NCBI GenBank assembly: GCA_016782425.1
Contig: JADHYN010000006.1
Coordinates: 2,190-66,189 of the forward strand
Length of the DNA stretch: 64,000 nucleotides
Direction: 5' to 3'
Source of the DNA: Candidatus Omnitrophota bacterium
GTDB lineage: Bacteria > Omnitrophota > Gorgyraeia > JABMRN01 > RBG-13-46-9
Shown here: piece after piece, positions 642-63,447 of the stretch
How positions within the stretch are numbered: position 1 is the stretch's first letter
Layout of the letters: every line of letters starts with the position of its first letter
Position numbers and translations under genes: made by a program
The notes under the pieces: model-generated
What the model was told of the DNA's origin: nothing
The model's input: only the letters and a program-made list of their open reading frames with translations
Database searches by the model: none

Positions 642-1408
642 GTATCCTTTATCTTTTTATCATAGGCGCTATTGTCGGTAGTTTGATGAACGTGTGTATT
701 TATAGACTGCCGAAGGGCCAGTCTATAGTAACGCCGCGTTCTCATTGCCCTTCATGCGGTCACGCGATAGCGTGGTTCGACAATATTCCAATACTCAGTT
801 TTTTGATATTAAAGGGAAGATGTAGATCCTGCAGAAATAAGATTTCCCCAAGATACGTTGTTGTCGAAGTTCTTTCAGGGGTGGTGAGCGTCTTACTTTT
901 CTTGCGTTTTGGATTGACGGCTAAATTTTTTATTTTATGGTATCTTTCGTGCGCCCTCATCGTGGCGTCGTTTATTGATCTTGAAATTCGCGAGATACCC
1001 GATATTATTACGCTACCCGGCATAGTAATCGGGATGTCGCTGGCAGCTTTGCATCCGCCGCTTATGGGTAGTGCCGGAAATCTTTCGTCTTTTGTAAACT
1101 CTTTTCTCGGGGTTATCGTAGGCGGGGGGAGCATTTACATTCTCGGTTTCATAGGTGAATTTATCTTCAAAAAAGAAGCCATGGGAGGAGGGGACGTTAA
1201 GTTGCTTGCGATGATCGGCGGTTTTATCGGTTGGAAACTCATCCTGCTTACCTTTTTTCTTGCGCCATTTTTTGGTTCTATAGTGGGTATTTTTCTCAAA
1301 ATAAAAGAGGGAAGGGCTATCATTCCGTACGGACCGCATCTGTCATTGGCAGCATTTGTAGCTATATTTTACGGAAATGCAATCCTAAAAAAATTATTTT
1401 TATTATAA
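638..1408 (+). CDS. pilD: Prepilin (type IV leader) peptidase, A24 family
   Basis: N-terminal CPSCGH...GRCRSCR zinc-knuckle, multiple TM segments, GGGDVKL aspartyl-protease motif. ATGA overlap with aroE. Confidence 0.85.
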   Translation: MSILYLFIIGAIVGSLMNVCIYRLPKGQSIVTPRSHCPSCGHAIAWFDNIPILSFLILKGRCRSCRNKISPRYVVVEVLSGVVSVLLFLRFGLTAKFFILWYLSCALIVASFIDLEIREIPDIITLPGIVIGMSLAALHPPLMGSAGNLSSFVNSFLGVIVGGGSIYILGFIGEFIFKKEAMGGGDVKLLAMIGGFIGWKLILLTFFLAPFFGSIVGIFLKIKEGRAIIPYGPHLSLAAFVAIFYGNAILKKLFLL

Positions 1409-1413
1409 ATAAA

Positions 1414-1445
1414 GACACAACTTATGGAGGCCGAAAGCCGACATA
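1414..1445 (+). repeat. Post-stop element, copy 1 (GACACAACTTATGGAGGC-CGAAA-GCCGACATA)
   Basis: It shares an 18-nt identical core plus GCCGACATA with 35789..35832. It starts 5 nt after the pilD stop. Confidence 0.7.
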
Positions 1446-1472
1446 CAAAGAAAAAATTCAAAAGACGATGTC

Positions 1473-1493
1473 CTTGACATTTATGATGTCAAG
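1473..1493. promoter_or_regulatory. Palindrome CTTGACAT-N5-ATGTCAAG, 27 nt upstream of the aroC ATG
   Basis: Perfect 8-bp inverted repeat containing TTGACA on both strands. A related palindrome lies at 49616..49640. Confidence 0.5.
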
Positions 1494-1520
1494 AACAGTG
1501 CTCATTGAAGGAGGAGAAAC

Positions 1521-7089: not shown

Positions 7090-7962
7090 ATGGAACGCTA
7101 CATAGAAAAATTTAAAAACTACCTGGTAGTCGAAAAGAATTATTCTACGCATACGGTAAAGAATTACCTGGCGGATCTGGCCGAGTTTTCGTCTTTTTTA
7201 TCCGGTAAAGATATAAAAGAGGTTGATTATCTCGCCATAAGGAAGTTTCTTGCTTATTTCAGGACAAAGGGAATATCAAAGCGCTCGGTTGCAAGGAAAC
7301 TTTCAACTCTAAGGACGTTTTTCAGATTTCTTTGCCGGGACGGCTATACAAAAAATAACCCAATTGCAAACATATCAACCCCCAAATTAGATAAGCGCCT
7401 ACCCATTTTTCTCGACGAGAAGCGCATCTTGCAGCTTATAACGGCGCCGGATAAAAAAACTTTTCAGAGCGCGCGTGACCGGGCCATACTCGAGACGTTA
7501 TATAGCACGGGCATAAGGGTAAGTGAGCTTGTGGGGATCGATATTGACGATATAGATTTCATAAGCGGGGTAGTCAAGGTATTGGGAAAAGGCAGGAAAG
7601 AAAGGCTTGCGCCGATAGGCGATAAAGCGGTAAATATTATACGTGAATACATGGATTACAGAAACAGAAAAAAGAGGACCGATAAAAAAGCCCTTTTCTT
7701 AAATAAATCCGGCAGCCGCATCACCCAGAGGGGCGTAAGGCGCACCGTCGAGAGGTACATAAAAGTTTTGAGCATCAAAGAACACATTTCGCCGCATACA
7801 TTCCGTCACTCTTTTGCAACGCACCTTTTAAACAGGGGCGCTGATCTTCGAAGCGTTCAGGAACTCCTGGGCCACAAGAATCTTTCGACAACACAGATTT
7901 ACACGCACGTAACAATAGACCACCTAAAATCGGTTTATGACAAAGCACATCCGAGGGCATAA
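7090..7962 (+). CDS. xerC: Tyrosine site-specific recombinase XerC/XerD family
   Basis: HTFRHSFATHLL and LGHKNLSTTQIYTHV catalytic motifs. Conserved dprA-topA-xer neighbourhood. The C versus D assignment is uncertain. Confidence 0.8.
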   Translation: MERYIEKFKNYLVVEKNYSTHTVKNYLADLAEFSSFLSGKDIKEVDYLAIRKFLAYFRTKGISKRSVARKLSTLRTFFRFLCRDGYTKNNPIANISTPKLDKRLPIFLDEKRILQLITAPDKKTFQSARDRAILETLYSTGIRVSELVGIDIDDIDFISGVVKVLGKGRKERLAPIGDKAVNIIREYMDYRNRKKRTDKKALFLNKSGSRITQRGVRRTVERYIKVLSIKEHISPHTFRHSFATHLLNRGADLRSVQELLGHKNLSTTQIYTHVTIDHLKSVYDKAHPRA

Positions 7963-22174: not shown

Positions 22175-22309
22175 CCCCGTTAGATCTCAAAAGATTCTAA
22201 TTAGGGGTAGATTCTTTAGATAATTTTTGTTCAAGTCGAGAATCATTTGAGACAAGGGAATTAGAATGCGCATAACGAATAAACCAGTTCGAAAGGAGAT
22301 CTAACGGGG
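22175..22309 (+). promoter_or_regulatory. Structured kdsB leader: 14-bp perfect inverted repeat CCCCGTTAGATCTC / GAGATCTAACGGGG bracketing 107 nt
   Basis: The left arm starts 1 nt after the hldA stop. The right arm overlaps the 3' end of the AAAGGAG RBS and ends on the first base of the GTG start. Nested stems ATTCTAATT/AATTAGAAT and GATTCT/AGAATC. Confidence 0.6.
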
Positions 22310-27634: not shown

Positions 27635-28674
27635 TGCGGCGCGCGATGAAAATACGCTACGAAATCGATCCCCACAACAGACTAGTTTTAAAATCCGGCA
27701 AACCTTCCCCGCTTAAAACATACCGCGCCGTCTTAGACGGGACGTTCAAAATCGACCGAAATAATTACCTCATCTATCATATCAAAAAACCCAGCCCCGT
27801 TAGATCGAGAACATCTAATGGGGCAAGCCCCGTTTTTTTAGACAAAAGACTCCCGCAACAAATAAAACTAAAGGGAAGCTGGTCACTGGCGAAAAATTAT
27901 AACCTGATCTATACCCTGGATAAATGGCAAAACCAGGTTTACGGAAACAGGCTCATATTAAAAAGCGGCTTCATGAATGCCGCAGAAGATAAGCTGATCT
28001 TCGCGTTAAAGAAAACTGAAGGCCGTCGTAAAGAACGTATCTATATCCTGGCTATTTCGGGTTCGTGGCATGCGGATAAATTTAACAGACTTACTTTTCT
28101 CGTTGAAAGAGAACCCCTCGGGCATAAGCCCATTGCGCTTAAAGCCGGATGGAAGGTAAATAAAAATAACGAGATTATCTACAGATACTGTAAAGAAGGA
28201 ATGATCCGTTCCGTGACGTTCAAGGGCCGCTGGGATATCATAAGAAAACACAGACTTTTCTATTCCCTGGATAAGAGCAAGGATTCCACCTTCGAGTTTA
28301 GAGTCGGCACGGCCTCTTACGACAAAAGAGGCAACCTACGATATCAGATCGGAATAGGCAGTTCGTATAGAAAAAGGTTGAAGGCAAGGCTGGTTACCCT
28401 TTTCGGAAAATGGAAAATAGATGATAAAACAGGCTTTATCTTTGAAATGTCCTACGGAAAGAATAAAATCCATTCCATCACATTCGGCGCTTCGATAAAA
28501 TTAAATAAAGATTATACGCTTGAAGTTGATTTAAAAGACAGGAAAAACCGCCCCCTCGGAATAAAATTCACCCTCTCCAGAACATTTTTTAAAAATCAGG
28601 CAAAGGCGTTCATAAGCCTCATAAAAGAAAGGTCAAAACTTACCGTAATCGCCGGTACTGGGTTCCTTTTTTGA
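27634..28674 (+). CDS. Hypothetical basic beta-repeat protein (seven repeats of about 45 aa); no signal peptide seen
   Basis: The ATG overlaps the queF TGA (TTGATG). The motif h-x-G-x-W-x-h-x4-N-x-L-I-Y-x-L recurs seven times (for example LKGSWSLAKNYNLIYTL, LKAGWKVNKNNEIIYRY, FKGRWDIIRKHRLFYSL). C-terminus is ...AGTGFLF. Confidence 0.6.
   Translation: MRRAMKIRYEIDPHNRLVLKSGKPSPLKTYRAVLDGTFKIDRNNYLIYHIKKPSPVRSRTSNGASPVFLDKRLPQQIKLKGSWSLAKNYNLIYTLDKWQNQVYGNRLILKSGFMNAAEDKLIFALKKTEGRRKERIYILAISGSWHADKFNRLTFLVEREPLGHKPIALKAGWKVNKNNEIIYRYCKEGMIRSVTFKGRWDIIRKHRLFYSLDKSKDSTFEFRVGTASYDKRGNLRYQIGIGSSYRKRLKARLVTLFGKWKIDDKTGFIFEMSYGKNKIHSITFGASIKLNKDYTLEVDLKDRKNRPLGIKFTLSRTFFKNQAKAFISLIKERSKLTVIAGTGFLF
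27794..27839 (+). repeat. In-frame intragenic copy of the CCCCGTTAGA hairpin, plus a terminator-like GGGGC-AA-GCCCC-GTTTTTTT
   Basis: GCCCCGTTAGAT-cgagaac-ATCTAATGGGGC: 12-bp stem with one G-U on the + strand. It encodes SPVRSRTSNGASPVFL, between repeat 1 and repeat 2 of the protein. Confidence 0.75.
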
Positions 28675-34196: not shown

Positions 34197-35783
34197 ATGG
34201 CGATAAAGATACTAATAAGCGATCCGTTGGCGGAAGAAGGTATAGCTATACTGAAAAAAGAGAAGAGTTTCAGGGTAGACACGAAATACAAGCTGCCTCC
34301 CGATGAACTCAAGAAGATTATTCCGGAATACAACGTCCTTATCGTGCGAAGCCAGACAAAGGTTACAAAAGATATACTAAAGCACGCGAAAAAACTTAAG
34401 CTTATCGGAAGAGCCGGAGTCGGACTTGATAACATAGACGTGAACGAAGCTTCCAAGAAAGGCATCATTGTCATGAACGCCCCTGGCGGAAATACGACTT
34501 CGACTGCAGAACACACCCTTTCGTTACTATTGTCGCTGGCACGGAATATACCCCAGGCGAATTCCTCCCTTAAAAAAGGCGAGTGGAACAGGAAGAAATT
34601 CATGGGGGTGGAACTCTACGGGAAGACCCTGGGAATCATAGGATTCGGCCGGATTGGAACGGACGTGGCGAGGCATGCCTTAAGTTTTAAAATGAAGGTA
34701 ATAACATACGACCCATTTTTGATTGACGAAAAGGCTAAATCCCTGGGCATCGAACCGGTAAGCCTAGACGTACTATTTAAAAGATCGGATTTTATAACTG
34801 TACACACCCCCCTTACGGATGACACCTATCATATGATAGGTGAAAAAGCGTTTAAAAAAATGAAAAAAGGTATCCGGATCATAAATTGTGCAAGGGGCGG
34901 TATCGTAGACGAAAAAGCCCTTGTTAAAGCGATAGAAGCCGGCGTCGTGGCGGGCGCTGCTCTGGATGCGTATGAAAAAGAACCGCCGGGACAGAGTAAG
35001 CTCGTCCAGATGGATAAAGTCGTGACAACCCCGCATCTTGGAGCCTCAACGGAGGAGGCACAAATCAACGTCGCTATCGACATAGCGCACAGTATAACAG
35101 ATGCCCTTATCAAGAGGAGTATCCGCAATGCCGTTAATGCCCCTTCCATAGGGCCCGAACTCCTGGAAGTTATTGAACCATACCTCTCCCTCGCCGAAAA
35201 AATGGGTAGCATGCATGCCCAGCTTGCGGAAGGCCGCATCAAAAAGGTAAAAATAAAATATGTCGGCGATGTAGTAAAATATGACGTGAGCCACATCACG
35301 CGTTCCATCGTGAAGGGAATGCTTAAACCCGTGTTGGAGGAGAGCGTAAATTACGTCAACGCCCTCGTCATCGCGCGCGAAAGAGGTATTAAAATCAACG
35401 AAGGAAAAACAGAAGAGATCGAGGATTTTGCGAATCTCATAGCCATCGAGGTGGAAACCGATAAAATAAAAAACTCCATAGTTGGAACGCTCTTTACGAA
35501 AATCGATCCGCGCATTATAAAAATAAATCAGCTTTACGTTGACGCCGTTCCGGAGGGCCACATGCTTGTTATCTATAATCAGGATAAACCCGGAATAGTC
35601 GGCCAGATCGGAAGCGTCCTCGGCAAGAATAGCATAAACATTGCCGGCATGACCTTCGGCCGTGCCAAGCGAGGCGGAGCGGCTGTCACTGTTTTAAACG
35701 TCGACAGCGAAGTTCCCGAGAGTGTTTTGAATAAAATAAGAAAGGCAAAATATATAAAAGAGGTAATGCCCATAAAACTATAA
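34197..35783 (+). CDS. serA: D-3-phosphoglycerate dehydrogenase (long form with ASB and ACT domains)
   Basis: GIIGFGRIGTDVA NAD motif, HLGAST, and a C-terminal ACT domain (DKPGIVGQIGSVLG). Confidence 0.9.
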   Translation: MAIKILISDPLAEEGIAILKKEKSFRVDTKYKLPPDELKKIIPEYNVLIVRSQTKVTKDILKHAKKLKLIGRAGVGLDNIDVNEASKKGIIVMNAPGGNTTSTAEHTLSLLLSLARNIPQANSSLKKGEWNRKKFMGVELYGKTLGIIGFGRIGTDVARHALSFKMKVITYDPFLIDEKAKSLGIEPVSLDVLFKRSDFITVHTPLTDDTYHMIGEKAFKKMKKGIRIINCARGGIVDEKALVKAIEAGVVAGAALDAYEKEPPGQSKLVQMDKVVTTPHLGASTEEAQINVAIDIAHSITDALIKRSIRNAVNAPSIGPELLEVIEPYLSLAEKMGSMHAQLAEGRIKKVKIKYVGDVVKYDVSHITRSIVKGMLKPVLEESVNYVNALVIARERGIKINEGKTEEIEDFANLIAIEVETDKIKNSIVGTLFTKIDPRIIKINQLYVDAVPEGHMLVIYNQDKPGIVGQIGSVLGKNSINIAGMTFGRAKRGGAAVTVLNVDSEVPESVLNKIRKAKYIKEVMPIKL

Positions 35784-35788
35784 ATGAG

Positions 35789-35832
35789 GACACAACTTAT
35801 GGAGGCTGTAGGCCGACATAAGTTGTATGTCC
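35789..35832 (+). repeat. Post-stop element, copy 2 (GACACAACTTATGGAGGC-TGTAG-GCCGACATAAGTTGTATGTCC)
   Basis: Same core as 1414..1445. Here ACAACTTATG / CATAAGTTGT close into a hairpin. It starts 5 nt after the serA stop. Confidence 0.75.
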
Positions 35833-35838
35833 GAATTT

Positions 35839-35997
35839 ACCCCACACCCAGGAACTCAAAATGGGTAGAAGGCACATAGCTATAGGCAATAGTAAATAAT
35901 ATTAAAAAAAATATATTTATATATGTCTACTTTTACAAAAAATTCTTCTGACGGAATCTACAAAAGAATTTTTTGTATGAGTTCCTGGGTGTGGGGT
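35839..35997. repeat. 20-bp perfect inverted repeat ACCCCACACCCAGGAACTCA / TGAGTTCCTGGGTGTGGGGT bracketing 119 nt of AT-rich cargo
   Basis: The arms are at 35839..35858 and 35978..35997. The cargo holds a 14-bp hairpin (35934..35947 / 35964..35977) and a weaker one (GTAGA...TCTAC, 35865..35930). Related termini occur at 60777..60882 and 63390..63409. Confidence 0.8.
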
Positions 35998-36017
35998 CAT
36001 TAAAAAAAGGTGAGAAT

Positions 36018-37268
36018 ATGACGAAAAAGAAAGCGAACATAATCCGCATTATTGACGTTACAAATAGAGACGGCGTTCAGACATCGCGGCTTGGCCTTGC
36101 AAAACTGCAGAAGACCATGATAAACATGTATTTAAATGACATGGGTGTATACCAGAGCGAGTTTGGGTTTCCGGTTACCCACCACGAGACAAACTATCTG
36201 AACGCAAATTTGGAATTAGCCAAAAAAGGCGCTTTGAAGCCCATTGTCCTCGAGGGTTGGATAAGGGCTATCGAGGACGATGTTGTCACTGCCACCCAAA
36301 TGACGGATGTCAAGCACCTGAATCTCTCCATTTCCACTTCAGACCAGATGATCAAAGGAAAATTCAAGGGGAAATATACAAAAAAGGACGTTATTAAAAA
36401 CATGGTAAAGGCTGCCAAGGTTGCCAAAAGAAAGAACATAAAGACGATAGGTGTCAATGCCGAGGATGCTTCGCGAAGCGACATGAGCTATTTGATAGAA
36501 TTTTCACTAGCGGCAAAAGAAGCCGGCGCGACGAGAATCAGGTATTGCGATACGCTCGGATTCGATGACCCCTTCAGTATATACGAAAGGGTGGCGCATC
36601 TTGCGTCGAGTGTAGAATTGCCCATAGAGCTGCACTGCCACAACGATCTGGGTATGGTCGTGGCGTGTAGCATAGCAGGCGCAAAGGCTGCTATTGATTC
36701 AGGTGTAGATGCATACATAAATACAACTGTAAACGGCATGGGCGAGAGAGCCGGAAACGCCGATCTTGCCAGCGTTATTCTGGCGATTAAACATTCGAGC
36801 GGTTTCAGGGGTAAATATAAGCTGGACGAAAAAATAAACCTGAAGAAGGTATGGAAGATTGCCACCTACGCCTCATACGCATTCGGCATACCCATTCCGG
36901 TCAATCAAGTGGCGGTCGGGGCTAACGCTTTTGCGCACGAATCAGGCATACACGCCGACGGCGCTTTAAAGGACAGACGGAACTACGAACTTTACGACTA
37001 CGAAGAGCTTGGTCGCGGGGAGCCCGAGATTATAGATACCGGGAGAAAGATCACGGCGGGCGAATACAGCGGTATCAAAGGCTTTAGGAACGTTTATGAC
37101 AAATTGGAAATCAAGTTTAAAAACGAAAAACAGGCAGCGGAGATCCTGGAGCTTGTTCGTTACGCTAACGTTCACACGCAAAAGCCGCTTACCGAAGACG
37201 AGCTTCGTTTTATTGCGACCTACCCGGTGATAGCAAAGAAAATCTTTACCATGGCGCCGCTTAAGTAA
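36018..37268 (+). CDS. HMGL-like (isopropylmalate / homocitrate / citramalate synthase family) enzyme, specificity unknown
   Basis: TIM-barrel family features (HCHNDLGM, HESGIH), but the N-terminal substrate motif reads DVTNRDGVQT rather than DTTLRDGEQ. Start ATG 36018 has a GGTGAG RBS. Confidence 0.7.
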   Translation: MTKKKANIIRIIDVTNRDGVQTSRLGLAKLQKTMINMYLNDMGVYQSEFGFPVTHHETNYLNANLELAKKGALKPIVLEGWIRAIEDDVVTATQMTDVKHLNLSISTSDQMIKGKFKGKYTKKDVIKNMVKAAKVAKRKNIKTIGVNAEDASRSDMSYLIEFSLAAKEAGATRIRYCDTLGFDDPFSIYERVAHLASSVELPIELHCHNDLGMVVACSIAGAKAAIDSGVDAYINTTVNGMGERAGNADLASVILAIKHSSGFRGKYKLDEKINLKKVWKIATYASYAFGIPIPVNQVAVGANAFAHESGIHADGALKDRRNYELYDYEELGRGEPEIIDTGRKITAGEYSGIKGFRNVYDKLEIKFKNEKQAAEILELVRYANVHTQKPLTEDELRFIATYPVIAKKIFTMAPLK

Positions 37269-45912: not shown

Positions 45913-45915
45913 GTG

Positions 45916-46023
45916 AAATATCAAAAAGTAAATATCAAAAATCAAAAATGAATATAAAATATGCAAAAATATTTTTGGTTTTTAATCTGCGTTTTTGATA
46001 TTTGACTTTTGATTTTTGATTTA
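45916..46023. repeat. About 108-nt low-complexity hairpin whose arms are ATCAAAA(A)/TTTTGAT repeats, with central palindrome CAAAAATATTTTTG
   Basis: 45920..45941 ATCAAAAAGTAAATATCAAAAA pairs with 45992..46013 TTTTTGATATTTGACTTTTGAT (one indel, one mismatch). A perfect 14-nt palindrome lies at 45964..45977. Confidence 0.7.
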
Positions 46024-46031
46024 AAAATAAT

Positions 46032-48863: not shown

Positions 48864-48878
48864 GTGATATAGTAATAT
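48850..48878 (+). promoter_or_regulatory. Sigma70-like promoter candidate TTGACA-17 nt-TAATAT overlapping the proS stop
   Basis: Consensus -35 with a 17-nt spacer. It lies upstream of a short hairpin/terminator and the rimP-nusA-infB operon. Confidence 0.4.
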
Positions 48879-48923
48879 ATTCAGGTATTATTTAGCACTC
48901 AATTAAGGAGGGAGTGTTAGTGG

Positions 48924-48953
48924 AAGAGTGGGAAAAACCCACTCTTTATTTTT
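48924..48953 (+). terminator. Rho-independent terminator AAGAGTGGG-AAAAA-CCCACTCTT-TATTTTT
   Basis: Perfect 9-bp stem, 5-nt loop, T-rich tail, 60 nt after the proS stop. Confidence 0.75.
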
Positions 48954-49010
48954 AATGAGCACATAACTTATGCGACTGAAAGGAGTGTAAGCTATAAGTG
49001 CGAATTAATC

Positions 49011-49049
49011 CCGAGCCCCGTTAGAAATTATTTTCTAACCGGGCGAGGG
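49011..49049. repeat. CCCCGTTAGA-family hairpin (CCCGAGCCCCGTTAGAAA-TTAT-TTTCTAACCGGGCGAGGG)
   Basis: 18-nt arms with 3 mismatches. It lies 16 nt upstream of the rimP ATG. Confidence 0.65.
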
Positions 49050-49064
49050 ATCTATCAAAAGCAT

Positions 49065-49523
49065 ATGGAAGAAGTAATAGAACGAGTAAACCAAGTTATC
49101 GAGCCTATAGCGAATGAACGCAAATACTATGTTGTGGATGTTACGTATAGGCGCGAAGGTGGAAAGCTCCTGTTAAGAATCATACTGGATAAAGAAGGTG
49201 GCATAGCGATAGATGAGTGCAGCAGGCTGAATAATGAGCTTGGTGAACTTTTAGACAAGGAAAACCTGATCGAGGAACCATATACGCTGGAGGTATCATC
49301 CCCTGGCCTGGACAGAGGGCTCAAGACGGATAGAGATTTTGCGTGGGCCGCAGGCAAAAAGGTAAAGATAAGCACGTATGCACCCCTTGATGGAAAGAAT
49401 GTATTTAGAGGGACCCTTTTGGGCTTGGGAGACGGCACTATCGTTGTAGAAGAAAACGGTATCTCAACGGAAATTCCAAGGGATAAAATATCAAAGGCTA
49501 GATTAAATGAGGCCATGATTTAG
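49065..49523 (+). CDS. rimP: Ribosome maturation factor RimP
   Basis: About 150 aa with the EVSSPGLDRGL motif. rimP-nusA-infB synteny. Confidence 0.85.
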   Translation: MEEVIERVNQVIEPIANERKYYVVDVTYRREGGKLLLRIILDKEGGIAIDECSRLNNELGELLDKENLIEEPYTLEVSSPGLDRGLKTDRDFAWAAGKKVKISTYAPLDGKNVFRGTLLGLGDGTIVVEENGISTEIPRDKISKARLNEAMI

Positions 49524-49553
49524 GAAAATTTTTTTAAAATTTTCCTAAATCAT
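49515..49553. repeat. Hairpin ATGATTTAGGAAAA(TTTT)-TTT-(AAAA)TTTTCCTAAATCAT containing the rimP stop codon
   Basis: A 14-bp perfect stem plus 4 A-T pairs. The TAG at 49521..49523 sits in the 5' arm. Confidence 0.75.
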
Positions 49554-49615
49554 AAAGCCGAATTTATCCCGAAGGCACGAAGTACCTTAAGGGATCTCAT
49601 ATTGGGATTGCTTCG

Positions 49616-52923: not shown

Positions 52924-52936
52924 CACGAATTAGCAC

Positions 52937-53046
52937 GTTTCGAAGGACGAAAGGATGAAAGACGAAAGATGATTCGTCCCTCGTCTTAGCGAACGAAGTA
53001 AGTGGTCGTCCCTGCCTGCCGGCAGGCAGGCGTCGTCCATCGTAAC
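52937..53046. repeat. GACGA/TCGTC-repeat hairpin element, long copy (contains the 20-nt perfect palindrome CCTGCCTGCCGGCAGGCAGG at 53011..53030)
   Basis: Outer arms GTTTCGAAGGACGA / TCGTCCATCGTAAC (12 of 14 paired). It shares CGAAGGACGA, GA(T/A)TCGTCCCTCGTC and CCATCGT...CGTAACG blocks with 58519..58589. Confidence 0.7.
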
Positions 53047-53063
53047 GAGGAAGATATTATATT

Positions 53064-58510: not shown

Positions 58511-58518
58511 TATGCACA

Positions 58519-58589
58519 GTTACGAAGGACGAGAGACGATAGACGAAGGACGAATCGTCCCTCGTCCCTCATCCATCGTCCCTCGTAAC
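58519..58589. repeat. GACGA/TCGTC-repeat hairpin element, short copy
   Basis: GTTACGAAGGACGA...GACGAAGGACGA-A-TCGTCCCTCGTC...TCGTCCCTCGTAAC. The inner (12-nt) and outer (14-nt) arms each have a single mismatch that is A-C on the + strand (G-U on the - strand). Confidence 0.75.
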
Positions 58590-58603
58590 GTAGAGTTTAA
58601 GAT

Positions 58604-60120: not shown

Positions 60121-60728
60121 TATATTTTATTTCCAGGATTCTTTTTAAGATCCTTTTAAAAACTGTTTTTAGATTTGAAATTAACGGCAGCGGAAATATA
60201 CCCAAAAAGGGTCCTTTTATAATGGTATCGAACCATGTGAGCTATGCCGACCCTGTCGTCATGGGCGTGGCGTGCAACACGGTTCCTATCAACTTTATGG
60301 CAAAAAGGGAGCTCTTTGACATACCTATTTTTAACCTGTGGTTCAAAGCTGTCGGCTGCATACCCATTGAACGCAATTCGGCTAGCTCCGCAGCTTTAAA
60401 AAAAGCGGTACAAAAATTGAAGCAAGGAATGGCTCTCGGAATATTTCCGGAAGGGCGCCGCTCCCCGGACGGAAAACTCCGGAAAGCGGAACCCGGAGTC
60501 GGATTGATTGTCGCGAAAACAGGGGTACCCATAATCCCTCTTTATATTTCAGGAACAGAGAAGGCGTTACCGATAGGCAAGAAAACCTTAATGCCGTGCA
60601 AGATTACAGCGAAGATCGGAAAAACAGTCGATATAAGCCAGAGTATGAAGCTCCTTGAGAAAAGAAAGATTTATGAATCCATAGGCGAGAAAATAATAGG
60701 CGCCATTTCGAGACTAAAAGATGAATGA
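60117..60728 (+). CDS. plsC: 1-acyl-sn-glycerol-3-phosphate acyltransferase
   Basis: NHVSYADP (HX4D) and FPEGRRS motifs. Confidence 0.85.
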   Translation: MIYFISRILFKILLKTVFRFEINGSGNIPKKGPFIMVSNHVSYADPVVMGVACNTVPINFMAKRELFDIPIFNLWFKAVGCIPIERNSASSAALKKAVQKLKQGMALGIFPEGRRSPDGKLRKAEPGVGLIVAKTGVPIIPLYISGTEKALPIGKKTLMPCKITAKIGKTVDISQSMKLLEKRKIYESIGEKIIGAISRLKDE

Positions 60729-60730
60729 AG

Positions 60731-60766
60731 CCATAACCTATACCTGCAGGCAGGTATAGGTTATGG
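60731..60766. repeat. 17-bp perfect hairpin CCATAACCTATACCTGC-AG-GCAGGTATAGGTTATGG, 2 nt after the plsC stop
   Basis: Perfect inverted repeat. The centre CCTGCAGGCAGG resembles the 53011 palindrome. No T-tract follows. Confidence 0.75.
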
Positions 60767-60776
60767 GGCTGAATTC

Positions 60777-60882
60777 ACCCCCCACCCAGCACAAATTGGG
60801 TGGTATGCAGATGTTAGCTAATGAATTTTATAAATGCAAATTTTAAGCACAAAATGGATTGGATAAATGCTGGGTGGGGGGT
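60777..60882. repeat. 15-bp perfect inverted repeat ACCCCCCACCCAGCA / TGCTGGGTGGGGGGT bracketing 76 nt of AT-rich cargo
   Basis: The arms are at 60777..60791 and 60868..60882. The terminal motif is related to 35839..35997. AATTC is present on both flanks. Confidence 0.75.
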
Positions 60883-60968
60883 CCAATTCGACCCCATGGA
60901 CGAGAATAGCAAGAAATATGAATTTGCGAATTTTTTTAATTTTCGTAAATTCAAATCTCATTGGAAAG

Positions 60969-61829
60969 ATGCGTAAGACAAAGATAATCGTTTCTTCCCG
61001 ATCGGGTTTCTGTTTTGGTGTCCAAAGGGCGCTTAACATTGCCAAAGGCGCGCTCAAGAAAGGAAAAACAGTTTATTCGCTGGGCCCTATTATACACAAC
61101 CCGCAGGTTGTGAGAGACTTTTCTAAAAAAGGGCTGAAAGTTATAAGCGATATAAGGAAGGTCAATTCAAAAGGTGTGGCGGTCCTTATTCCGTCTCACG
61201 GCATAAGCCCGGACGTATTGAGGAAAAAAAGGATTGCGTGTATCGATACGACATGTCCGCTCGTGGGCAGGGTGCAAAAAATAGTACAGGACTTTAAAAG
61301 AAAAGGATACTTTGTCATCATAGCCGGCGACAGAAAACACCCTGAGGTCAAGGGATTAGTGGGCATGGCCGGAAAAAATTCGCATGTTGTAAAAAACAAA
61401 AAGCAGGCAAGGGCACTGGGTCTAAAATCGAAAAAAGTAGCCCTGATATCGCAGACCACTGCGTCTATTTCAAATTTTAAGGATGTTTTATCAGAAATTG
61501 CGAAGAAGGATTTTACGGAACTGGTGAGTTTTAATACTGTATGCAAGGATACGATACAAAGACAAAAAGAAGCCTCTTCCATAGCCAAGAGGGTCGATAC
61601 AATGTTTGTAATCGGCGGAAAAAATAGCGCCAACACATCAAGGCTTGCAAAAGCCTGTAAAAAAGTAAACGATAATACGTACCATATCGAGTCAGGGGAG
61701 AATTTAAAAATGGATTATTTACGAAATAAAAAGACTATAGGAATAGCAACAGGGGCATCAACGCCCCCACGCGCTATAAACGAAATAATAAAGAGAATAA
61801 GGAGGTTCGATGCAAATGGTGGAAAATGA
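60969..61829 (+). CDS. ispH: 4-hydroxy-3-methylbut-2-enyl diphosphate reductase
   Basis: GFCFGVQRAL, TTCPLV and GGKNSANTSRL motifs. ATG 60969 chosen, because ORF-track start 60867 lies inside the inverted repeat. Confidence 0.9.
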   Translation: MRKTKIIVSSRSGFCFGVQRALNIAKGALKKGKTVYSLGPIIHNPQVVRDFSKKGLKVISDIRKVNSKGVAVLIPSHGISPDVLRKKRIACIDTTCPLVGRVQKIVQDFKRKGYFVIIAGDRKHPEVKGLVGMAGKNSHVVKNKKQARALGLKSKKVALISQTTASISNFKDVLSEIAKKDFTELVSFNTVCKDTIQRQKEASSIAKRVDTMFVIGGKNSANTSRLAKACKKVNDNTYHIESGENLKMDYLRNKKTIGIATGASTPPRAINEIIKRIRRFDANGGK

Positions 61830-63384: not shown

Positions 63385-63389
63385 GTAGA

Positions 63390-63409
63390 CCCCACACTTC
63401 CGTGTGGGG
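63390..63409. repeat. Short-loop member of the ACCCCACAC family: CCCCACAC-TTCC-GTGTGGGG
   Basis: Perfect 8-bp stem, 5 nt after the rpsA stop. Same terminal sequence as the arms at 35839/35978. Confidence 0.7.
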
Positions 63410-63416
63410 AATGCAC

Positions 63417-63447
63417 GCCCCGTTAGATGTGACACATCTAACGGGGC
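63417..63447. repeat. CCCCGTTAGA-family hairpin GCCCCGTTAGATGTG-A-CACATCTAACGGGGC
   Basis: 15-nt perfectly complementary arms. Confidence 0.8.

Follow-up and report, generated by a model that had tools for sequence, protein, structure and literature searches.

The described systems closest to the element reported here are, on the one hand, the repetitive extragenic palindromic (REP) sequences with their bacterial interspersed mosaic elements (BIMEs) and REP doublets forming hairpins (REPINs), which are linked to REP-associated tyrosine transposases (RAYTs) of the Y1 HUH type, together with the repeats of the terminal inverted repeat-associated tyrosine transposases (TIRYTs) and, on the other, miniature inverted-repeat transposable elements (MITEs) such as Correia/NEMIS (Neisseria), ERIC, RUP and Nezha. 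REP doublets nested in longer palindromes have been documented (Di Nocera et al. 2013, PMC3733652) and the hairpins on either side of class 3 Y1 genes, a class found chiefly in Planctomycetes, are atypical and have a 5' foot (Quentin et al. 2018, PMC6006769). Here we describe a segment of about 217 nt, at positions 35784-36000 of a stretch of 64,000 nucleotides from a Candidatus Omnitrophota bacterium (contig JADHYN010000006.1, positions 2,190 to 66,189 of the forward strand; hereafter the window). It lies between serA, encoding D-3-phosphoglycerate dehydrogenase (34197-35783), and a gene for an HMGL-like, or homocitrate-synthase-like, protein that begins at 36018. The comparisons described below place this segment in a dispersed family of nested palindromes, and we consider it rather probable that it is a partly decayed, non-autonomous nested palindromic repeat, of the MITE or REP-doublet (REPIN/BIME) type, which entered the serA-HMGL spacer. 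The family of small non-coding repeats to which it belongs is widespread and apparently undescribed.

Full-length copies of the family are pseudo-symmetric palindromes of 250-300 nt. From the outside inwards they carry a foot, (A)ATGAG, an arm hairpin of about 45 nt, a GAATT linker, a clamp, CCCCNCACCCAG, and a variable apical cargo; the second half contains the same parts mirrored and ends in CTCAT(T), such that two covarying arm hairpins stand around the clamp. A literature search for the clamp sequence yielded only unrelated primer sequences, and the supplements of the REP survey were without it.

In common with the REP-type and TIRYT repeats, these elements are short imperfect palindromes located intergenically at gene ends, they form head-to-head inverted doublets able to fold into a larger hairpin, and they persist for long periods while their stems drift; the termini of REP sequences sometimes also supply the stop codon of a neighbouring gene. 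They differ in that the REP tag, GTAG/CGTC, is missing from the arms, with GTAG preceding only the hairpin at 63385-63409, and the foot reads NTGAG rather than CnGA. Moreover, the arms are longer than REP sequences and their tandem G.A mismatch is fixed, the centre is formed by a separate GC clamp whose cargo is hypervariable (6-135 nt), and no RAYT or TIRYT gene is linked to the copies in the window and the loci fetched. A resemblance to TIRYT terminal repeats, which have the motif GGGGWSAS in common, is seen at the edge of the clamp, where some copies read GGGGTCAC.

With the MITEs the family shares a size of 100-300 bp, a lack of coding content and terminal inverted repeats, a gene-adjacent and co-transcribed location with hairpins that are possible RNase III substrates, presence or absence between relatives, and the breaking of short-read assemblies. 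The copy downstream of serA has a perfect 20-bp terminal repeat, within the 15-30 bp range of MITEs, and a non-coding length of 159 or 217 nt, depending on the unit considered, within their 70-300 bp range; similar copies are present (five arms and two clamp modules in 64 kb) and four relatives have empty sites. Unlike those MITEs, it has a threefold nesting of inverted repeats (foot, arm and clamp), interiors are unconserved between many copies of the same genome, a 12-nt terminus is shared across phyla, and neither a clean target duplication of fixed length nor a known parent insertion sequence accompanies it. Thus, lacking the REP tag and, among otherwise largely MITE-like features, the fixed target duplication and parent insertion sequence, the element is not a member of a named family.

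An insertion between serA and the HMGL-like gene

All credible genes of the window lie on the plus strand and have housekeeping functions, and their proteins find their best matches in metagenome-assembled genomes (MAGs) of Candidatus Omnitrophota. The stop codon of serA is separated from the start of the HMGL-like gene by 234 nt, compared with 12-20 nt, including a ribosome-binding site (RBS), in four related Omnitrophota (L005, L006/7, L008 and L009), for which the serA proteins are 76-82% identical and the synteny from clpP to ispG is kept. The comparison of serA-downstream spacers, recommended in an earlier note on this DNA, found the site empty in all four and, since these relatives have the 12-20 nt only, the ~217 nt at 35784-36000 are lineage-specific. 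Judged from these alignments, the segment is an insertion relative to the four related species.

The earlier note had started from a perfect 20-bp inverted repeat enclosing 119 AT-rich nt between the two genes, and had envisaged an idiosyncratic spacer hairpin in the event that only the few copies in the window existed and relatives lacked empty sites; copies were found at other loci and in other genomes, alongside the four empty sites. The 159-nt module that it delimited (35839-35997) is real and forms the centre of the insertion, while the actual repeat unit is a nested composite of ~217 nt that includes the upstream hairpin at 35788-35832. Sequence, shuffling and Pfam searches bear out the inverted repeat and its gene context. 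The 20-mer ACCCCACACCCAGGAACTCA occurs at only two window sites (35839 and 35978), even when three mismatches are allowed, and the inverted repeat was absent from 100 of 100 dinucleotide-preserving shuffles. In comparison with shuffled sequences, the module has a predicted fold of -64.2 kcal/mol (z = -10.4) on the plus strand and -65.4 kcal/mol (z = -11.6) on the minus strand, and the predicted value for the whole serA-HMGL spacer is -90.3 kcal/mol. The copy is incomplete when set against its full-length relatives: the right arm hairpin is missing and the clamp runs straight into TCAT, and a mirror-image truncation, CATGAG/CCCC, is found at locus L100.

The internal structure proposed earlier for the cargo held up in part. 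A 14-bp perfect stem at 35934-35947 / 35964-35977 is present and, in the alignment, is retained with compensatory changes in two homologues (L065 and L066, see below). The letters of GTAGA (35865-35869) and TCTAC (35926-35930) are complementary as described, but they pair in the minus-strand fold only and are absent from the plus-strand minimum-energy fold, and the pairing is not kept in L065 and L066. As the middle of the window cargo shows no conservation in alignment with these homologues, the three-way junction that had been suggested is not a conserved feature. The loose likeness between the cargo starts of the two long window copies is real, and the homologues share AATGGGTR there. A tiny interior open reading frame (ORF), MGRRHIAIGNSK, already considered unconvincing, was rejected as a gene because neither start codon nor peptide is conserved; the ATG is missing in the second window copy and in two short metagenome contigs (L128 and L129), and L065 and L066 have different peptides. 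On sequence grounds, the element is without coding capacity.

Four independent short-read assemblies of the source organism fail at 35782 / 36005; three Logan contigs stop at 35782 and an ENA scaffold has 100 N between 35782 and 36005. A repeat, heterogeneity of the population and a coverage gap caused by the hairpin would all fit these positions, and the breaks were set aside as evidence for an empty allele because they do not discriminate. The metagenome contigs L128 (at its 3' end) and L129 (at its 5' end) terminate inside their own element copies. The breaks suggest that, in MAGs of Omnitrophota, contig ends and scaffold gaps systematically arise from such elements, and offer a reason for the interruption of metagenome assemblies at spacers of this kind. 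A joined empty allele at the window site would read ...CTATAA and then AAAAAGGTGAG.

A dispersed family with maintained base pairing

Genomes, one per species, were scanned with the pattern CCCCNCACCCAG, 75-135 nt, CTGGGTGNGGGG, which matched at least 118 loci in many phyla; chance would, by our estimate, account for a few matches, or for as many as a few tens where genomes are GC-rich. In metagenomes, a first clamp pattern gave no match and a second retrieved the two short contigs L128 and L129. Viral contigs contained one clamp match and, given this single match, the element does not appear to be phage-associated.

The flanks of the clamp are conserved in Omnitrophota, and in MAGs labelled Planctomycetales / Planctomycetia, as (A)ATGAG, a hairpin of ~45 nt and GNCYGAATTnnA. 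A covariance model of the arm (R1) recognised 43 arms in loci from these groups; the syntenic DNA of the four relatives (76 kb) contained none, and the loci searched from the Candidate Phyla Radiation (CPR), Kiloniellales and Nitrospirota were likewise without a match. Pairs of plus- and minus-oriented R1 arms surround the clamp at L014, L021, L030, L039, L040, L050, L053, L065, L123 and other loci; of such inverted doublets in the window, the second copy has both arms and the first its left arm only. In a cargo-less form at L014 (6944-7090), both arms enclose CCCCACACCCAG-AATTAA-CTGGGTGTGGGG, in a 12-6-12 layout. Together, the arm model and the clamp pattern provide a concrete signature for surveying this repeat family in poorly studied phyla.

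Homologues of the 159-nt module that include the interior are present in other Omnitrophota genomes, between rpmA and obg (L065) and between ribH and nusB (L066), and show 69% identity to the window module over 166-178 nt (blastn). All three copies have the same orientation relative to transcription, and they have in common a closing helix of 19-20 bp with two compensatory positions, the AATGGGTR motif, and the AT hairpin beside the right arm. In some genomes, including Planctomycetales ERP125453_co1_410 and that of this window, the cargos differ wholly between copies while clamp and arms are conserved. Among the matches listed, multi-copy families with conserved interiors occur in Kiloniellales, Patescibacteria RA.bin82, Niyogibacteria and the JAZDOX Omnitrophota genome, and their copies lie in both orientations, often at contig ends. 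In Patescibacteria RA.bin82 (L012 2126-2341), a clamp element of 142 nt begins two bases beyond the 3' terminus of a tRNA gene.

Base pairing within the family was assessed in an alignment of 22 arms (A2). Paired cells amount to 91.5% in the arm hairpin; the figure falls to 69.6% after column shuffling and to 25-34% after sliding of the partner, and there are 76 double-change cells as against 19.5 +/- 3.6. The boxes TTAYGGAGC and GCGACRTAA are fixed, with a tandem G.A mismatch, and G-U pairs are rare (8 of 352 cells). In the clamp, the free position N is complementary across the arms in 116 of 120 elements, with all four base-pair types represented among the matches listed. In these alignments, compensatory changes preserve the pairing of arm hairpin and clamp helix alike. 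Moreover, since G-U pairs are scarce and the two arms yield different RNA sequences, the alignments suggest that, as with REP sequences, pairing is important either on both strands or for single-stranded DNA. An 11-nt GNRA tetraloop receptor (UAUGG / CCUAAG) was considered for the arm hairpin and rejected, the Y-R covariation being ordinary pairing.

Mobile repeat or selected structure

The MITE-like, non-autonomous element that figured among the candidates of the earlier note is favoured by the empty sites, the homologues at unrelated loci, the multi-copy families and the contig breaks, although the double-arm palindrome brings it nearer to a REP doublet or BIME. Also in its favour are the TAA on both sides of the window copy, with T-R-A flanks common in other copies, and direct repeats of 4-9 bp abutting seven clamp elements, where ~0.5 would be expected by chance. 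The element is not a regulatory RNA specific to the serA or HMGL genes, and long spacers in otherwise very compact Omnitrophota operons are, as this case shows, insertions of a structured repeat family rather than regulatory leaders. Spread would occur through recognition of a hairpin or of single-stranded DNA by an enzyme acting in trans, for which a Y1 HUH transposase of the RAYT or TIRYT type is the leading candidate and a transposase making a 3-bp T-N-A duplication an alternative. Within the serA-HMGL transcript the element is predicted to adopt a compact multi-helix fold of about -90 kcal/mol, and its complementary ATGA and TCAT ends would bring the stop codon and the RBS together; the insertion was probably tolerated because folding keeps the stop codon near the downstream RBS. 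A putative secondary role, as an mRNA-stabilising or RNase III processing hairpin, is plausible.

Several observations weigh against a mobile origin. The target-site duplications are not clean: the flanking T-N-A could equally constitute the outermost pair of the palindrome, its middle base often differs from one side to the other, and the direct repeats, at eight clamp elements, vary in length over 3-9 bp. No transposase or autonomous element with these termini was detected in the window, and a crude search of the loci fetched up to that stage, translated in six frames and matched against regular expressions for the HUH and Y motifs, found none. Wholly different cargos within one genome, between conserved clamps and arms, are atypical of recently transposed MITEs; they suggest either old copies held by selection or some other route that generates cargos. 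Four of the five window arms share the orientation of the genes, and the right arms are either degenerate or lost, which could reflect selection at the RNA level. Finally, the 12-nt clamp found across phyla could be partly convergent, or an effect of the choice of search pattern.

With regard to the flanks, a 14-nt sequence, GAAAATTAAAATGA, is present at the left boundary of the element at L040 (3945-4210) and again 6 nt past its right end, where it includes the downstream start codon; it may represent a long target duplication or a low-complexity coincidence. The earlier note had seen no transposase, reverse transcriptase or other partner gene in the window and, consistent with this, Pfam revealed neither enzyme among the window proteins scanned, the sole recombinase being encoded by a housekeeping XerC/D-type gene (7090-7962) in a dprA-topA context. 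The autonomous element with the same termini, for which a search had been advised, was encountered neither in the window nor in the loci fetched up to that stage. Two possible partners were rejected: a 342-aa ORF (27646-28674), which has no Pfam match and looks repetitive and beta-rich, unlike a transposase, and the region between paired clamps lying 1-3 kb apart at L122, which encloses genes for ribosomal proteins and no transposase.

A possible but clearly less probable explanation is that the elements are selected cis-acting RNA structures, acting as intercistronic stabilisers, as RNase III sites or in coupling the stop codon to the RBS; this would be compatible with a mobile origin. The elements are placed exactly between stop codon and RBS, with CTCAT(T) typically followed, at a distance of 1-3 nt, by RAAGGAGG and then ATG, and the bias of the window arms towards the gene orientation is matched by the shared orientation of the three homologues with an asymmetric interior. 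Their predicted structure is very stable, and covarying stems combined with fixed loops and a fixed G.A motif are the pattern of old, constrained copies. Furthermore, clamp modules are found at the helix tips of 23S rRNA (L102 and L117) and of RNase P P12 (L082), a location typical of intervening sequences excised by RNase III. However, the two arms of the full-length palindrome differ as RNA, with G.A in one and C.U in the other, and the near absence of G-U pairs is not what such a role would lead one to expect; the genes neighbouring different copies are functionally unrelated, and four sister species manage without the element.

The pseudo-symmetric design, and the 12-6-12 centre of the cargo-less L014 form, which resembles a recombinase core site, raise the alternative of a site acting at the DNA level, either as a cruciform or by binding a dimeric host protein symmetrically; a nucleoid protein, a recombinase or a REP binder of the gyrase type would be examples of such a protein. 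The lack of G-U pairs in the covarying arm, and a 12-nt clamp that is conserved while everything inside it varies, would fit such recognition. We nevertheless regard it as unlikely, given that the only recombinase of the window is the XerC/D-type housekeeping enzyme, that most copies here are without one arm, which should destroy a symmetric site, and that the clamp length and loop vary, as in the 8-4-8 arrangement at 63390-63409.

An independent small RNA (sRNA) gene, 6S-like or other, with its own promoter in or beside the repeat, was among the earlier candidates and is very improbable. Although the predicted structure is strong on both strands, and one sigma-70-like match is present on the minus strand of the cargo (TTGTAA, 17 nt, TATATT), the count of promoter matches is that of shuffled sequences and the hexamers are unconserved in L065 and L066, no terminator follows the repeat, the cargo middle is unconserved and cargos are wholly different between copies, which also have unrelated neighbour genes. 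The Rfam search that had been proposed, 6S RNA included, gave no match in the window at gathering thresholds and only chance microRNA-type matches at E values up to 10; nor did Rfam contain a family for the elements in 18 related loci. Least probable of all is a spacer hairpin, or intrinsic terminator of serA, that arose in place, since, despite its position directly downstream of serA and the tandem hairpins of other spacers here, the structure has no U-tract (the right arm is followed by TCATTAAAAAAA, and scanning revealed no site of the terminator type), is lacking in four relatives, and has clear homologues at other loci and in other genomes, with both clamp and arm occurring in families.

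Two further resemblances were dismissed on inspection. GTTAGAT in the CCCCGTTAGAT repeats fits GTTRRRY of integron attC sites, but the order of core and inverse core is reversed relative to that in attC, and a likeness of GGGGTTCAATTC to a tRNA T-arm fails because the 3' strand is not complementary.

Clamp modules in other phyla and further hairpins in the window

In CPR bacteria (L102 601-732 and L117 6151-6287), the tips of two different 23S rRNA helices, at Rfam LSU model positions ~275-295 and ~1752-1777, are replaced by modules that carry this clamp. These modules look like intervening sequences, with which the clamp module shares a long helix closing an AT-rich interior at a hairpin tip; the window copy differs in lying in an mRNA spacer and not in rRNA, and intervening sequences have not been described as a dispersed intergenic family. 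Short, uncharacterised insertions without ORFs are known from CPR rRNA genes (Tsurumaki et al. 2024, PMC11270868). At L045 (2016-2162), also from the CPR, a third clamp module lies just upstream of a 23S gene. In two Nitrospirota MAGs (L082 4683-4785 and L073 64-169), RNase P P12 reads CCCCGCACCCAG...CUGGGUGCGGGG and has an extra apical insert (83 nt in L082), a likeness that could be due to convergence, the C-run being partly ordinary P12 consensus.

We suggest, tentatively, that the CCCCNCACCCAG-cargo-CTGGGTGNGGGG module may be a single cross-phylum family occupying hairpin tips, which is nested in the palindromes of Omnitrophota and Planctomycetales-Planctomycetia, is multi-copy in CPR and Alphaproteobacteria, and accounts for some 23S and P12 inserts. 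Its 12-bp helix would then be conserved as the target of a widespread enzyme, either a transposase or RNase III; alternatively, some mechanism might load heterogeneous DNA between two fixed half-sites, and this would explain both the wholly different cargos and the cargo-less forms. If the cross-phylum link is true, intergenic palindromic repeats and rRNA intervening sequences would be one kind of element, and the origin of the short CPR rRNA insertions would become testable.

The features of the serA-HMGL element and of the other family members in the window are listed in Table 1. In total, the window holds five R1 arms and two clamp modules. The related termini that had been reported at 60777-60882 were recovered as a 15-bp inverted repeat with a 76-nt interior, and the simple hairpin at 63390-63409 as an 8-bp stem with a 4-nt loop.

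Table 1. Coordinates of the element downstream of serA, its flanks, and further family members in the window
Feature	Positions	Strand	Details
serA stop codon TAA, left flank of insertion	35781-35783	+	ORF 34197-35783; Pfam 2-Hacid_dh / PGDH_inter / ACT
Left arm of element (foot, arm hairpin, linker)	35784-35838	+	Covariance model R1 match 35780-35843, 71.3 bits
ATGAGG foot	35784-35789	+	
REP-like arm hairpin	35788-35832	+	Outer stem 35788-35792 / 35828-35832; inner stem 35793-35801 / 35817-35825
Tandem G.A and 2-nt bulge of arm hairpin	35802-35803 / 35815-35816; bulge 35826-35827	+	
GAATTT linker	35833-35838	+	Between arm hairpin and clamp
Left 20-bp inverted-repeat arm, ACCCCACACCCAGGAACTCA	35839-35858	+	Exact reverse complement at 35978-35997
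Clamp core CCCCACACCCAG, 12 nt	35840-35851	+	Same core bounds elements at at least 118 loci
AT-rich interior (cargo), 119 nt	35859-35977	+	Conserved AATGGGTAG at 35860-35868; AT hairpin 35934-35977
Internal AT hairpin	35934-35977	+	14-bp perfect stem 35934-35947 / 35964-35977; adjoins right clamp arm
Right 20-bp inverted-repeat arm	35978-35997	+	100% complementary to left arm
TCAT closing motif	35997-36000	+	Complements ATGA of left foot
Right flanking TAA	36001-36003	+	Identical to TAA at 35781-35783
RBS GGTGAG and HMGL-like ATG (36018)	36009-36020	+	Ancestral short spacer kept 3' of insertion; Pfam HMGL-like / HCS_D2
Second member, full length	60725-60962	+	R1 60721-60782 (+, 43.9 bits), 60878-60965 (-, 27.1 bits)
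Second member, left side	Arm hairpin 60731-60766	+	Foot ATGAAG, arm hairpin, then GGCTGAATTCA
Second member, centre	60777-60882	+	Clamp and 76-nt cargo
Second member, right side	Closing CTCATT 60957-60962	+	TCCAATTCGACC, degenerate right arm hairpin, CTCATT
Hairpin CCCCACAC-TTCC-GTGTGGGG, GTAGA before it	63385-63409	+	Short clamp relative, no cargo
Member without CCCC clamp	1405-1506	+	AATAAAG, arm hairpin, CTCATT, GAAGGAGG, ATG
Member with a different clamp in the central slot	48951-49051	+	R1 match 48951-49012, 41.7 bits
Member overlapping rimP stop codon	49503-49600	+	R1 match 49503-49570, 46.3 bits

In the second member, the stop codon TGA of a plsC-like gene (60726-60728) lies inside the ATGAAG foot, and the closing motif is followed by an RBS and an ispH ATG at 60969. 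The longest ispH (lytB) ORF starts at an ATG within the element (60867), whereas the Pfam LYTB match begins at residue 40 and, given also the RBS and ATG after the closing CTCATT, the true start is probably 60969. Recognition of the elements corrects gene calls, as in this example.

The remaining members are without the CACCCAG clamp or have another hairpin in its slot. The arm hairpin of that at 1405-1506 is 87% identical to 35780-35820. The member at 48951-49051 reads AATGAGC, arm and GCGAATTAAT, followed by a hairpin, CCCGAGCCCCGTTAGAA...TTCTAACCGGGCGAGGG, of the CCCCGTTAGA type, and that at 49503-49600 consists of an AT-rich arm hairpin (49515-49553), GCCGAATTTA, a small central hairpin and TCTCAT. 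Directly before the former arm (AATGAGC...), downstream of proS, a canonical intrinsic terminator, AAGAGTGGGaaaaaCCCACTCTTTATTTTT, is located at 48864-48950, so that the source genome does use ordinary U-tract terminators, unlike the repeat hairpins.

Additional inverted repeats were observed in the window. In the spacer that separates kdsB from a pfkB-family kinase gene, 107 nt are surrounded by a perfect inverted repeat of 14 bp, CCCCGTTAGATCTC (22175-22309), and the right arm of this repeat overlaps the GGAG ribosome-binding site and GTG start of kdsB. A word of 10-12 nt from this repeat also forms simple hairpins at 49016-49043 and 63417-63447, and this second clamp family behaves like the CCCCNCACCCAG family. 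A hairpin of the CCCCGTTAGA type (GCCCCGTTAGATcgagaacATCTAATGGGGC) occurs at 27795-27823, within the 342-aa ORF mentioned above, which is absent from L006 and L009, where queF is directly followed by a lipid A acyltransferase gene. It could be an in-frame palindromic insertion, similar to the Rickettsia palindromic elements (RPEs), which are in-frame palindromes inside ORFs, or the gene could be mis-called; the sequences are unrelated to those of the RPEs, and in-frame insertion would apply here to this one side family only. The spacers at 52924-53063 and 58511-58603 carry a separate family of GGACGA / TCGTCC-type hairpins (CGAAGGACGAAAGG...CGTCCCTCGTC), and the rseP-ispG spacer (45913-46031), with a GC content of 17%, contains nested inverted repeats of the ATCAAAAA type that form one long imperfect hairpin.

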